IMG/VR virus record: IMGVR_UViG_3300024909_000001
Span: 1-41,900 of that record
Origin: a virus
Lineage: Duplodnaviria; Caudoviricetes
Direction: 5' to 3' (one strand)
Length of the DNA: 41,900 nucleotides
Shown: positions 1 through 41,900 of the stretch, one piece after another
Position numbering within the stretch: the first letter of the stretch is position 1
How the letters are laid out: every line of letters starts with the position of its first letter
The notes under the pieces: generated by a model
What the model was told of the DNA's origin: nothing
What the model saw: only the letters and a program-made list of their open reading frames with translations
Database searches by the model: none
Position numbers and translations under genes: made by a program

Positions 1-27
1 GGCGTGGAAACGCCGGTGTTCGACTGA
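1..27 (+). CDS. 3' end of an upstream host gene (...GVETPVFD*), partial
   Basis: Frame 1 is open to TGA at 25-27 and is followed by a terminator; too short to identify. Confidence 0.35.
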   Translation, partial: GVETPVFD

Positions 28-49
28 GCACCGGCTGTTGCGCCAACAC

Positions 50-81
50 AAGGCCCGCTCAAGCAGCGGGCTTTTTGTTTT
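50..81 (+). terminator. Host intrinsic terminator
   Basis: AAGGCCCGCT-caagc-AGCGGGCTTT stem-loop followed by TTGTTTT. Confidence 0.8.
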
Positions 82-91
82 CACGGGCCGA

Positions 92-97
92 TAGAAT
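92..97 (+). promoter_or_regulatory. Host sigma70 -10 element upstream of the TPP aptamer; now reads into the integrase
   Basis: TAGAAT lies 7 bp before the aptamer start; the same ATAGAAT recurs before the phage copy at 41605-41611. Confidence 0.55.
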
Positions 98-104
98 GCG
101 GCTC

Positions 105-172
105 TTCGCTAGGGGTGCTGGCTCATCGAATGAGCCGGCTGAGATAACACCCTTTGAACCTGACTGAGGTAA
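105..172 (+). ncRNA. 5' part of the host TPP riboswitch, truncated in L5 by the prophage
   Basis: CTAGGGGTGC...GCTGAGA...CCCTTTGAACCTGA-CTGAGGTAA matches the thi-box consensus. The 3' strands (TCCTCG-CGCAGGGAAG) are absent here and found at 41752-41767. Confidence 0.9.
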
Positions 173-193
173 GCCCCACGCCCACAAAGTAAA
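150..193. other. attL (host B half + core GAGGTAA 166-172 + phage P' arm GCCCACAAAGTAAA 180-193)
   Basis: The 7-bp core is repeated at 41745-41751. The arm is a 13/14 inverted match to 41729-41742. The site is immediately upstream of the serine integrase. Confidence 0.85.
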
Positions 194-215
194 CTGCCAA
201 AAACAGGGGGCAGGC

Positions 216-1823
216 ATGGGCGAACCGAAGGTTTACAGCTACATCCGATTCAGCGACGCACGCCAGGCCAGCGGCGCGAGCAGCGAGCGCCAGAGCGCCT
301 ACGCCGAGCAGTGGGCGGCCCAGCACGGCCTTGTGCTGGATGACCAGCTGAGCATGCGCGATGAGGGCCTCAGCGCCTTCCACCAGAAACACATCACGCA
401 AGGCGCCCTGGGCGTCTTCCTGCAGGCCGTGCACGACGGCCATGTGGCCCGCGACTCGGTGCTGGTGGTGGAAGGCCTCGACCGACTCAGCCGCGCCGAG
501 CCAATCCAGGCGCAGGCCCAGTTGGCCAGCATCATCAATGCCGGCATCAGCGTGGTCACCGCGAGCGATGGAAAGATCTACTCACGCGAGCGCCTGAAGG
601 CCAACCCGATGGATCTGGTCTACAGCCTGCTGGTGATGATCCGCGCCCACGAGGAGAGCGACACCAAGAGCAAGCGCGTGCGCGATGCGATTCGGCGCCA
701 GTGCCTCGGGTGGAAAGCCGGCACCTACAAGGGGCTGATCCGCTACGGGCAGGCACCGGGCTGGATGCGCGTGGTGGATGGCCGATGGGAGCTGATTCCA
801 GAGCGGGCTCAAGCTGTGCGGCTGGCCGTGGATCTGTGCCTGCAGGGCTATGGCGCCGGCCACATCACCAAGCAGCTGCACGCCCAGGGCCTGCAGTTCA
901 GCGCGAGCGCGCCAACTTCGGGCCATCTGACCCGCCTGTACACACACCCTGCGCTGGCTGGCGACAAGCACCTCGAGCTCGACGGGGAGACTCACGTCCT
1001 GGCGGACTACTACCCGGCCGTCCTTGATCGGCAGACCTGGGAGAGCCTGCAGCAAGCCGTGGAGCTGCGCGGGCGGCGCGCCGTGAAGGGCGAGATCCCG
1101 TCAGTGCTCACCGGCACGGGCATCACCATGTGCGGCTACTGTGGCAGCCCCATGAAGGCCCAGACGATGGCCAGCAAGCGCAAGGCAGACGGCACGCTGC
1201 TGGACTGTCACAGGCGCCTGCAATGCGTCAGCGTTAACTCGGGGGCGGGCTGCAAGGTTCCAGGCTCATGCTCGGCCGCCCCGATCGAGCGCGCACTGAT
1301 CCGCTACTGCTCTGATCTGGTCAACCTGCAGGGGCTGTATCACGGCGACCGCAGCGCCCTGCCTCGCGCTGAGCTGGCTGCCGCGCAGGCCGAGCTGGCC
1401 GGGATCGACAAGCAGCTGGAACGCCTGACCGAGGCGCTGCTCACAAGCGACGGCCCGGTGCCGGCGACGTTCGCCAAACGAGCGCGGGAGCTGGAGGACC
1501 AAAGAGGCAACGTGCTGGCCAAGGTCCAGGCCGCCGAGCGAGCTGTGGCCGAAGCTGCGCGCGCCAACCTTGACGGCGCCGACCAGCGTTGGCGGGTGAT
1601 CGCTGAAGGTGTCGAGGCGCTTGATTACACCGCGCGCATGCAGGCCCGCCAACTGGTGGCCGACACGTTTGAACGCATCGTCGTGTACAGCCGCGGGATG
1701 CGCCCGAACGATGCCACCGATGCGATCGACGTGCTGCTGCTCGCCAAGGGTGGCAATGCTCGCACGCTGAGGGTCGATCCGAAGGGGGGCTGGCTGGCGG
1801 CAGATGACTTGGCCGAGGTCTGA
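216..1823 (+). CDS. int: Large serine recombinase / integrase (535 aa)
   Basis: N-terminal VYSYIRFS catalytic motif, LVVEGLDRLSR resolvase motif, recombinase domain, CGYC..C..C zinc ribbon and coiled coil; GGGGG RBS. Confidence 0.95.
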   Translation: MGEPKVYSYIRFSDARQASGASSERQSAYAEQWAAQHGLVLDDQLSMRDEGLSAFHQKHITQGALGVFLQAVHDGHVARDSVLVVEGLDRLSRAEPIQAQAQLASIINAGISVVTASDGKIYSRERLKANPMDLVYSLLVMIRAHEESDTKSKRVRDAIRRQCLGWKAGTYKGLIRYGQAPGWMRVVDGRWELIPERAQAVRLAVDLCLQGYGAGHITKQLHAQGLQFSASAPTSGHLTRLYTHPALAGDKHLELDGETHVLADYYPAVLDRQTWESLQQAVELRGRRAVKGEIPSVLTGTGITMCGYCGSPMKAQTMASKRKADGTLLDCHRRLQCVSVNSGAGCKVPGSCSAAPIERALIRYCSDLVNLQGLYHGDRSALPRAELAAAQAELAGIDKQLERLTEALLTSDGPVPATFAKRARELEDQRGNVLAKVQAAERAVAEAARANLDGADQRWRVIAEGVEALDYTARMQARQLVADTFERIVVYSRGMRPNDATDAIDVLLLAKGGNARTLRVDPKGGWLAADDLAEV

Positions 1824-27698: not shown

Positions 27699-27916
27699 TG
27701 TGTTGCGCCTGTTGGAGAACGTGTTGCGCGGCTAACCCGCGCCGTTGCTTGTGTTGCGCTGTTGCGAGGGGGTCGCGGGTATAGCAAGAGAATTGATGGC
27801 AAGCTGCGTGCAAACACGCGAGCGCACGCGCATGCGCGCATCTAGGCTGCAACAGCTGCAACACAAGCAACGGCGCGGCTTAGCGCCGCAACAGCCGGCG
27901 AAACAGGCGCAACAGC
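27699..27916. repeat. Large imperfect inverted repeat with TGTTGC iterons; probable replication origin
   Basis: About 27699-27765 (TGTTGC x4) is mirrored by about 27849-27916 (GCAACA x4), including CCGCGCCGTTGCTTGTGTTGC / GCAACACAAGCAACGGCGCGG; directly downstream of the primase-helicase. Confidence 0.75.
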
Positions 27917-31792: not shown

Positions 31793-31826
31793 GTGATTGC
31801 GGCTGGGGATGAAAGCGGGAATGGGT

Positions 31827-31889
31827 GCGCGCCCTGCCGTGGTTATGCTGGGGGCTCCTACACCAACCAGCCCACGGAGGGCGCGCATG
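31827..31889 (+). repeat. 63-bp self-complementary promoter/RBS cassette, copy 1
   Basis: Identical to 32626-32688; contains TATGCT, GGAGGG and the ATG of the downstream ORF. Confidence 0.9.
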
Positions 31890-32596: not shown

Positions 32597-32625
32597 GGCA
32601 GGCCTCCAGTGGGTAGGAAATGGGC

Positions 32626-32688
32626 GCGCGCCCTGCCGTGGTTATGCTGGGGGCTCCTACACCAACCAGCCCACGGAGGGCGCGCATG
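32626..32688 (+). repeat. 63-bp self-complementary promoter/RBS cassette, copy 2
   Basis: Identical to 31827-31889, 799 bp apart. Confidence 0.9.
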
Positions 32689-41573: not shown

Positions 41574-41598
41574 AGCCCGCACCACGCGGGCTTTTTTT
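41574..41598 (+). terminator. Phage terminator insulating the rebuilt riboswitch
   Basis: AGCCCGC-accac-GCGGGCT-TTTTTT. Confidence 0.85.
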
Positions 41599-41605
41599 CG
41601 TGCCA

Positions 41606-41611
41606 TAGAAT
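41606..41611 (+). promoter_or_regulatory. Phage-supplied -10 element for the rebuilt riboswitch and host gene
   Basis: TAGAAT, mirroring host 92-97; followed by a 5' hairpin GTCGCCAC/GTGGCGGC (41618-41638). Confidence 0.55.
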
Positions 41612-41639
41612 CCACCCGTCGCCACCGTGTGTGGCGGCA

Positions 41640-41768
41640 TTCGCTAGGGGTGCTGGCTCATTGCATGAGCCGGCTGAGATAGTCCCTTTGAACCTGATCG
41701 GCGGCCCTGGCCGCCATGCCAGCATTGTTTTACTTTGTTGGCACGAGGTAATCCTCGCGCAGGGAAGC
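41640..41768 (+). ncRNA. Chimeric TPP riboswitch: phage 5' part + about 45-nt insert + host P5/P4/P1 3' part
   Basis: All thi-box hallmarks are present (CTAGGGGTGC, GCTGAGA, CCCTTTGAACCTGAT, CGAGG-TAAT-CCTCG, CGCAGGGAAG), with a two-hairpin insert at 41699-41743. Confidence 0.88.
41729..41768. other. attR (phage P arm TTTACTTTGTTGGC + core GAGGTAA 41745-41751 + host B' half)
   Basis: Core repeat and inverted arm as described for attL. Confidence 0.85.
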
Positions 41769-41808
41769 AAGTCAGCAAGAGGGCCTCGCAGCCCCGTCTG
41801 TTTTGCCG

Positions 41809-41838
41809 CCCTGCCATCGAATGAGTAGGACGATGGCA
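41809..41838 (+). promoter_or_regulatory. Riboswitch expression platform: RBS/ATG sequestering hairpin
   Basis: TGCCATCG (41812-41819) pairs with CGATGGCA (41831-41838), covering the ATG and looping AGGA. CCCTGC (41809-41814) can alternatively pair with aptamer GCAGGG (41759-41764). Confidence 0.7.
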
Positions 41839-41900
41839 CATTCATTTCATTTCTCCCGTATCGCAATCGCCAGCGCCGCCGCGCTGAGCTGTGGCCTGAG
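41833..41900 (+). CDS. Host TPP-regulated exported protein, N-terminus only (MAHSFHFSRIAIASAAALSCGL...); possibly a thiamine uptake receptor or binding protein
   Basis: AGGA RBS, signal-peptide-like N-terminus, downstream of a TPP riboswitch; truncated by the window edge. Confidence 0.55.
   Translation, partial: MAHSFHFSRIAIASAAALSCGL

Follow-up and report, generated by a model that had tools for sequence, protein, structure and literature searches.

tRNA and tmRNA genes are targeted by integrating elements and restored by them. The 41,900-nt stretch of DNA analysed here (the window) raises the question of what becomes of a metabolite-sensing RNA that a phage has split, and of what use the phage makes of the part of the same RNA that it carries at its own far end. 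The window is a 41.6-kb prophage bounded by two junctions inside one TPP riboswitch; between the junctions lie terminase, portal, capsid, tail, lysis, repressor-like and replication genes (PHROGs), the gene set of a temperate tailed phage. Our analysis suggests, with a probability of about 0.68, that the right junction (attR) is still TPP-responsive and likely restores to the host transporter gene a functional OFF-switch for thiamine, though possibly one of lower sensitivity.

Two aptamer copies at the ends of the window

The left end holds the orphaned host part of the riboswitch, and the right end holds the phage module joined to the remaining host part. Residue numbers (G60, A61, U62 and so on) are those of E. 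coli thiM, assigned by alignment.

1–27, + strand: 3' end of a host NAD(P)/FAD oxidoreductase gene, the usual upstream neighbour of the riboswitch (identical to the flank of locus L308, which extends this gene; Pyr_redox in relatives)
50–80, + strand: host intrinsic terminator-like hairpin (50–74) and T run (terminator scan)
91–97, + strand: host −10-like box ATAGAAT, which would point into the integrase gene once the phage is integrated (sequence)
105–165, + strand: host 5' two-thirds of the TPP aptamer (P1-5', P2, P3, J3/2, J2/4, P4-5', J4/5), orphaned at the left junction (Rfam, 30.5 bits; alignment)
41574–41599, + strand: phage terminator-like hairpin (41574–41592; terminator scan)
41605–41611, + strand: phage −10-like box ATAGAAT, a putative replacement promoter (sequence)
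41618–41638, + strand: predicted 5' leader hairpin of 8 bp, of a kind seen in many host leaders of the family
41640–41698, + strand: phage copy of the aptamer 5' two-thirds, ending in G60-A61-U62 at 41696–41698 (Rfam; alignment)
41752–41768, + strand: host 3' third of the aptamer (P5-3', C77-G78, P4-3', P1-3'; Rfam; conserved in 264/401 family genomes)
41833–41900, + strand: start of a host TonB-dependent receptor gene (Plug domain in L269, identical to the window end)

The two 5' copies (105–163 and 41640–41697) are identical in 54 of 59 alignment columns. The differences, two substitutions in the P3 loop and one gap plus two substitutions in J3/2, fall where an earlier note on this DNA had placed them, and the common layout that it described is found at both ends, with terminator-like hairpins at 50–74 and 41574–41592 and ATAGAAT at 91–97 and 41605–41611. 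The phage hairpin would insulate the module from phage read-through. A sigma-70 scan returned no full promoter at either window end; 15 of 16 element-linked copies among the matches listed have a −10-like hexamer at a distance of up to 60 nt, a count that has no chance control. The Rfam TPP model (RF00059, gathering cut-off 54.3 bits) matches 41636–41782 at 43.9 bits (E = 1.7e–5) and 101–188 at 30.5 bits, both under the cut-off.

Empty site, integrase and attachment sites

The empty site is found directly. In run X20 a single contig leads from the host flank of 75–104 through a host-type aptamer straight into 41745, and run X14 has the same junction, so the site is observed and not merely reconstructed (the contigs come from comparison with 4 of 24 listed runs). 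These contigs bear out the earlier claims that the junction lies at GAGGTAA and that the empty site lacks the 45-nt insert. The further claim that the 58-bp copy lies outside the crossover agrees with a shared core of only 7 nt and with the 45 nt of insert between the two. Natural empty sites in relatives score 54.2–57.0 bits with RF00059 (4/4 tested, 3/4 over the cut-off; the joined site of the window's host is not among them), insert-bearing forms score 30.9–43.9 bits, below the cut-off in 11/11, and the two attP forms tested gave no TPP match.

216–1823, + strand: large serine integrase P0001, 535 aa (Resolvase, Recombinase and Zn_ribbon_recom matches; clade placement)
166–172, + strand: left junction core GAGGTAA (empty-site contigs; dyad symmetry of attB and attP)
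41745–41751, + strand: right junction core GAGGTAA, P5 5' strand plus L5 (empty-site contigs; alignment)
185–193, + strand: right attP arm motif CAAAGTAAA (+13 to +21), mirror of 41729–41737, a predicted zinc-ribbon-domain site by analogy with PMC3783163
41097–41342, + strand: P0002, 81 aa, which accompanies this integrase family; candidate recombination directionality factor

P0001 has the three parts of a large serine integrase, a Resolvase-like catalytic domain, a recombinase domain and a zinc ribbon; the zinc ribbon match is at 22.4 bits, under its 25.3 cut-off, and the CxxC motifs are invariant. The empty site, attB, is a dyad centred on the AA of L5 and built from the P4 and P5 strands, and attP forms another dyad, in which a 9-bp motif at −21 to −13 (41729–41737) is mirrored at +13 to +21 (185–193). 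The AA at 171–172, in loop L5, is the predicted crossover dinucleotide, and the integrase is predicted from sequence to use the P4–P5 dyad of the riboswitch as attB. A short crossover identity (7 nt) at the dyad centre together with outer 9-bp attP motifs is what serine-integrase sites are expected to show, and this anatomy fits the model described in PMC3783163, where attP has outer zinc-ribbon motifs, attB has them at shifted positions, and only attP with attB recombines; the motif of the reference attP there lies at 16–24, against 13–21 here.

P0002 occurs in ~90 loci from both TPP-targeting and rimO-targeting elements, and its identity tracks that of the integrase (rho 0.57, n = 71); it has no family match in PHROGs or Pfam. 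In the integrated state, the promoter of the host riboswitch and the orphaned 5' aptamer (window 91–216) aim at the integrase start, 44 nt beyond the core, and in free phage DNA the phage module aims at the integrase instead, which implies a promoter swap for this gene. That thiamine controls the integrase by way of attP or the left junction is ruled out, because the P4-3' and P1-3' strands are absent from all such sites compared and Rfam scores there are low or none.

An attP arm inside the aptamer

41699–41743, + strand: 45-nt insert with hairpin 1 (41700–41715) and hairpin 2 (41717–41743), from predicted folds

The earlier note left the insert unexplained. In our predicted folds it is an attP arm folded into a hairpin, and in our model this is the key design feature: the loop and 3' strand of hairpin 2 hold the left attP arm motif TTTACTTTG (41729–41737). 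The P4–P5 helix would offer the integrase a conserved dyad as attB, the phage would cross over in L5, and the phage end would bring the promoter and the aptamer 5' two-thirds. Because the 21 bp left of the crossover would have to be attP arm, the phage has no P4/J4-5 copy adjoining the crossover and would place it 45 nt further out; an added 5' strand would pair with the arm, giving the hairpin at 41717–41743, looped out after the solvent-exposed U62. U62 protrudes into solution and A61 stacks on C63 in the TPP riboswitch structure described in PMC5961109. The attR form of the window has the P1–P5 pairing and the pyrimidine-binding UGAGA of J3/2; G60, A61, C77 and G78 are all present, but 45 nt lie between U62 and C63. 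C41744, directly 5' of the right core, is supplied by the phage. The earlier note had seen in this base a change of the P5 U–G pair to C–G; the base is present, but a designed re-tuning by it is ruled out, since the position is not conserved (of 36 arm-bearing inserts among the matches listed, 18 have C there and 18 have T).

Pattern scans of viral, metagenome and genome collections gave at least 147 distinct insert-bearing sites, with one or two extra hairpins of about 20–60 nt between U62 and C63. Among the matches listed, the arm motif is found at −21 to −13, within 3 mismatches, in 16/16 inserts that adjoin the integrase or P0002, and 0/108 armless inserts lie beside either. Inserts fold better than mononucleotide shuffles (median z −4.9 and −5.1 among the matches listed), with z below −2 in 35/36 arm-bearing and 105/108 armless inserts, again among the matches listed. 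All four Watson–Crick pair types occur at stem positions −11 and −12 in per-sequence folds; the insert hairpin did not emerge as a consensus helix when RNAalifold was run on an automatic alignment of 23 of 25 single-hairpin loci. Outside the insert, two pairs of P3 show two-sided compensatory changes in 23 aligned copies, and UGAGA and GGGGUG, which were not part of the search pattern, are kept in 144/144 distinct insert loci among the matches listed, many of them near-copies of one another.

The copy across related elements

Among 164 integrase-bearing loci, 15 have a 5' aptamer just upstream; they represent 11 distinct elements besides the window, all with integrases of at least 62% identity. 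In a tree of 68 of the 106 distinct full-length integrases (midpoint root only) the aptamer-bearing integrases group in a single 15-row set with support 100/99. The upstream DNA is too short to read in 3 rows; of the other 12, 11 carry the aptamer and one (L096) does not. Relatives that target rimO surround this clade in the tree. The exception, L095/L096, has its integrase inside the clade (61% identity) and no aptamer upstream (upstream of 1501); it has possibly been retargeted. GenBank phage relatives at 48–54% identity have no aptamer before the integrase.

Both junctions, 8–47 kb apart, were found in four genomes (G001, G002, G003 and G009), and the far junction always has a second aptamer copy and an insert. 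G005 shows the far junction (attR) only, and G004, G006 and G010 the near junction only, that of G004 without a detectable 3' third; G007 and G008 gave no junction match. Free attP forms are represented by L002, L003, L005, L092, L093 and L342. As the earlier note expected, every element-linked far end or attP found has the copy, in a search that was designed to find copies; nothing that it had named as contrary at the sequence level turned up, the empty site being free of the insert and no far end or attP without the copy being found. The named hosts are Leptothrix, Aquabacterium, Variovorax and Paenacidovorax; the window's host species is not among 4 genomes compared from the nearest genus (72–74% identity). 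Two viral pattern matches (L164, L165) were discarded as chance matches in unrelated DNA. One site (G002:C12:9083-17250) has just ~8 kb between its junctions, a small island or satellite with the same module.

Could the copy be a selectively neutral leftover from recombination with the host flank, or merely the integrase promoter on free phage DNA? The module does aim at the integrase gene in attP forms, and the 54/59 identity of the window's copies is consistent with recent exchange. The phage copies have, however, diverged from the P3 of their own hosts with pairing kept, the ligand-binding junctions are retained, and two attP forms have no Rfam match. Moreover, neither attP nor the left junctions include the P4-3' and P1-3' strands, which leaves attR as the one site where the aptamer copy can become complete. 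We consider a relic or a bare integrase promoter highly improbable, and retain the reading that the copy serves the rebuilt switch.

A predicted translational switch at attR

41809–41838, + strand: predicted translational expression platform (folding; CCTGC counts)

The gene downstream codes for a transporter in many of the sites compared: of 44 downstream frames tested, 17 contain a TonB plug (including L269, identical to the window end) and 18 an NCS1 permease. The substrate of the TonB-dependent receptor of the window would, judging from the riboswitch, be thiamine or a precursor. In the predicted ON state, CCCTGC (41809–41814) pairs with the P4-3' strand (GCAGGG with CCCUGC); in the predicted OFF state, TGCCATCG pairs with CGATGGCA over the start codon, the hairpin strand UGCCAUCG pairing there as the alternative to GCAGGG–CCCUGC. 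CCTGC occurs within 100 nt downstream in 30/31 empty sites (7.5 expected) and in 113/134 insert sites (28.2 expected; among the matches listed).

Folded alone, the host 3' part is predicted to be ON (start-codon hairpin probability 0.04). A promoter alone would thus restore expression and the 5' aptamer copy would be useful only for OFF, which is our main argument for retained regulation. When the pairing of the aptamer core is imposed, the start-codon hairpin becomes more probable (predicted 0.57 for attR, 0.88 for attB and 0.72 for L308). In a secondary-structure model only, reaching the OFF fold would cost attR 10.0 kcal/mol, L308 9.7 and attB 5.2; attR is thus predicted to be harder to switch off than attB. 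One RNA-library contig spans 41642–41829 without differences, a weak hint, and the missing cover upstream of 41642 in X11 carries no weight.

These figures also bear on a different reading, in which the module restores expression but leaves a leader that is largely TPP-deaf or ON-biased, with approximately constitutive uptake of thiamine or its precursor and a fold kept for RNA stability or residual control. The larger energy gap (10.0 and 9.7 versus 5.2 kcal/mol) and the position of the insert in the pyrophosphate pocket speak for it, as does A61. This residue is kept in 31/31 empty sites and in the window, and is changed in 9/16 element-linked copies, in 22/36 arm-bearing inserts and in 61/108 armless ones (14/36 after clustering), all insert figures being among the matches listed. 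In E. coli thiM, A61U lowers the affinity about 3000-fold (Kd for TPP 2200 nM versus 0.74 nM), and A61G has lower affinity and still switches (both described in bioRxiv 10.1101/2025.01.21.634073). Yet a bare promoter would already give ON, and no copy among the matches listed has lost UGAGA, P2 or the covarying P3; phage-free chromosomal versions, too, retain the OFF/ON platform (113/134 among the matches listed). We regard a TPP-deaf leader as unlikely. A less sensitive or ON-biased switch nevertheless stays a live rival because of the A61 changes and the higher cost of the OFF fold.

Phage-free alleles and spread in the family

The module also persists in hosts without phage. In locus L308 the host flank is identical to window 1–104. 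The 5' aptamer that follows combines the P1 strand of the host with J3/2 of the phage type; after it come the phage insert, its arm intact, and then the 3' part of the host. Such an arrangement is what recombination of one 5' copy with the other should yield. One host species thus has the empty site, the lysogen and an insert allele free of phage. An assembly chimera is an unlikely source of L308, because the longest exact stretch common to both copies is just 22 nt and L308 has private differences. Read depths in run X1 agree with the allele (host-flank contig 89.3, insert contig 88.6, phage side 27.4), though depth does not measure copy number. Were the two 5' copies to recombine, the prophage would be deleted and the host left with a phage-type switch, an attR-like site that the integrase alone would probably not reuse. 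Since the phage-type switch persists in an allele of this host that has no phage, phages may be remodelling the TPP riboswitch across a bacterial family.

In a sample of 401 genomes of the family, 264 have the aptamer 3' third (this tally, and no other, includes the unpublished genome G155), and 28 of 30 fetched sites are canonical. An insert, searched for at lengths of 20–50 nt, is present in 27/401. None of these 27 has an integrase of the TPP-targeting clade beside the insert site, although incomplete genomes may hide one; integrase matches occur in 3/27, two of rimO type and one a fragment on another contig, and 23/27 have a single 5' half. In the 146 loci with at least 500 nt of upstream sequence, the oxidoreductase gene precedes 43 insert loci (L345 counted among them), 15 empty sites and 1 left junction. 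Intermediate states exist as well. L403 (G297:C7:178500-187000) is a decayed 4-kb remnant downstream of thiG/thiE-like genes, its left junction cut by an IS3-like element and its right junction still with the phage module and a P0002 homologue, and L290, L300, L350 and L356 show a whole or decaying arm beside host genes. The insert-bearing switches of the family are likely domesticated attR scars.

For part of the family the direction could be the reverse: switches with a hairpin at an insertion-tolerant site would have arisen in hosts, phages would have captured such a leader and later written the attP arm into its loop, and most armless variants would then not be scars. Consistent with this, 20/36 armless clusters, the largest (37 sequences) included, are no closer to arm-bearing inserts than structure-preserving randomisations, among the matches listed. 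The other 16/36 resemble arm-bearing inserts at p ≤ 0.05 among the matches listed, partly through shared J4/5 bases, and the shortest inserts (23–29 nt) correspond roughly to one attP arm plus its stem. A host-first origin also fits poorly with L308, whose host flank accompanies an intact arm of no host purpose, and with the intact or decaying arms beside host genes in L290, L300, L350 and L356. We therefore see a host-first origin as quite unlikely; as common descent is supported for 16/36 armless clusters and not for the rest, a phage origin of all variants is not established.

A wider reading, which we put forward tentatively and hold at somewhat less than even odds, is that the integrase clade drove the emergence of a new structural subclass of TPP riboswitch, with an attP arm in J4/5 repeatedly left behind after deletion of the phage. 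Such a switch would be a re-tuned working sensor, possibly with relaxed pyrophosphate recognition and sensing thiamine or TMP, and would be immune to re-integration at that site.

L224, L359 and 35 similar loci form a large cluster of TPP switches on chromosomes. They lie next to the host oxidoreductase gene, have A61U and two hairpins with short loops at J4/5, and are candidates for altered ligand preference. Relatives of the host also contain two divergent back-to-back TPP riboswitches (L196, 1486–1753; L197, 1280–1538).

Relation to known systems

The closest described case is Burkholderia phage JC1 (PMC9144972), whose integrase belongs to the same family (54% identity) and which also has a terminator before attP. 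JC1 as described inserts at the 5' end of rimO by a serine recombinase, supplies the 5' sequence itself and leaves a target that is predicted to be functional; what it repairs is a coding 5' end, with new codons, whereas here a structured cis-regulatory RNA is repaired and the attP arm is folded out. The earlier note had treated target restoration as a trait of tyrosine integrases. That distinction does not stand: since the serine integrase of JC1 restores rimO, target repair is not confined to tyrosine integrases.

The pneumococcal prophage phiOXC141 likewise integrates inside a regulatory RNA, csRNA3, and its part rebuilds and re-tunes that RNA (PMC9764711). There, by that account, a trans-acting sRNA is rebuilt at attL through the swap of a 3' stem-loop, whereas here a metabolite-sensing riboswitch is rebuilt at attR with a promoter and the 5' two-thirds, and phage-free derived alleles exist. 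Elements that integrate into tRNA or tmRNA genes take a conserved non-coding RNA with dyad symmetry as attB, and they have a long stretch of identity across the crossover. Enterococcus phage phiEf11, at ffs/4.5S RNA (PMC12540744), also uses a conserved non-coding RNA with dyad symmetry as attB; its described core is identical over 27 nt across the crossover, in contrast to a 7-nt core here, with the duplicated part 45 nt away. Compared with RF00059 switches of the translational E. coli thiM type, P1–P5, UGAGA, G60, C77, G78 and a platform that sequesters the start codon are shared, but the insert forms have extra J4/5 hairpins, often a changed A61, and scores below the cut-off.

The large serine recombinase catalogue of Durrant et al. 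(PMC10083194) includes relatives of this integrase, cluster2487 (whose attB reads as rimO) and Bm99; its main text mentions neither riboswitch nor thiamine, and the attB motif found here is absent on both strands from 8 supplementary files. The main text of PMC6092414, its supplements lying outside the search, contains no 'thiM', 'EcCI224' or 'riboswitch'. By titles and abstract starts we found no paper on phage integration into a riboswitch, subscription papers and bioRxiv supplements being outside the search, and a literature search of the same depth found none on extra stems in betaproteobacterial TPP riboswitches. The arrangement seen here is real and conserved. It resembles the known target-restoring integration, but a serine integrase directs it at a riboswitch, the attP-arm constraint is answered in the RNA, and derivatives free of phage exist.

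Besides tRNAs, sRNAs and the starts of genes, target repair thus takes in an RNA that senses a metabolite, and one 21-bp stretch can serve as an integrase site in DNA and as a tolerated hairpin in RNA. A structural riboswitch variant missed by Rfam gains a traceable origin with intermediates (27/401 genomes, versus 264 with the site). The locus makes it possible to ask if vitamin B1 uptake by Burkholderiales of fresh water and soil is re-tuned in lysogens. It points, for RNA engineering, to a natural insertion site in the TPP aptamer, and also to a serine integrase with a highly conserved attB.

Repeats within the prophage

Two further elements lie between the junctions. A 73-nt direct repeat, 97% identical with its copies 799 nt apart (31817–31889 and 32616–32688), is found in the immunity region near a CII-like gene. 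A 36-nt inverted repeat (27722–27757 and 27858–27893; 92%) lies just 3' of the primase gene and is a possible origin-related element.
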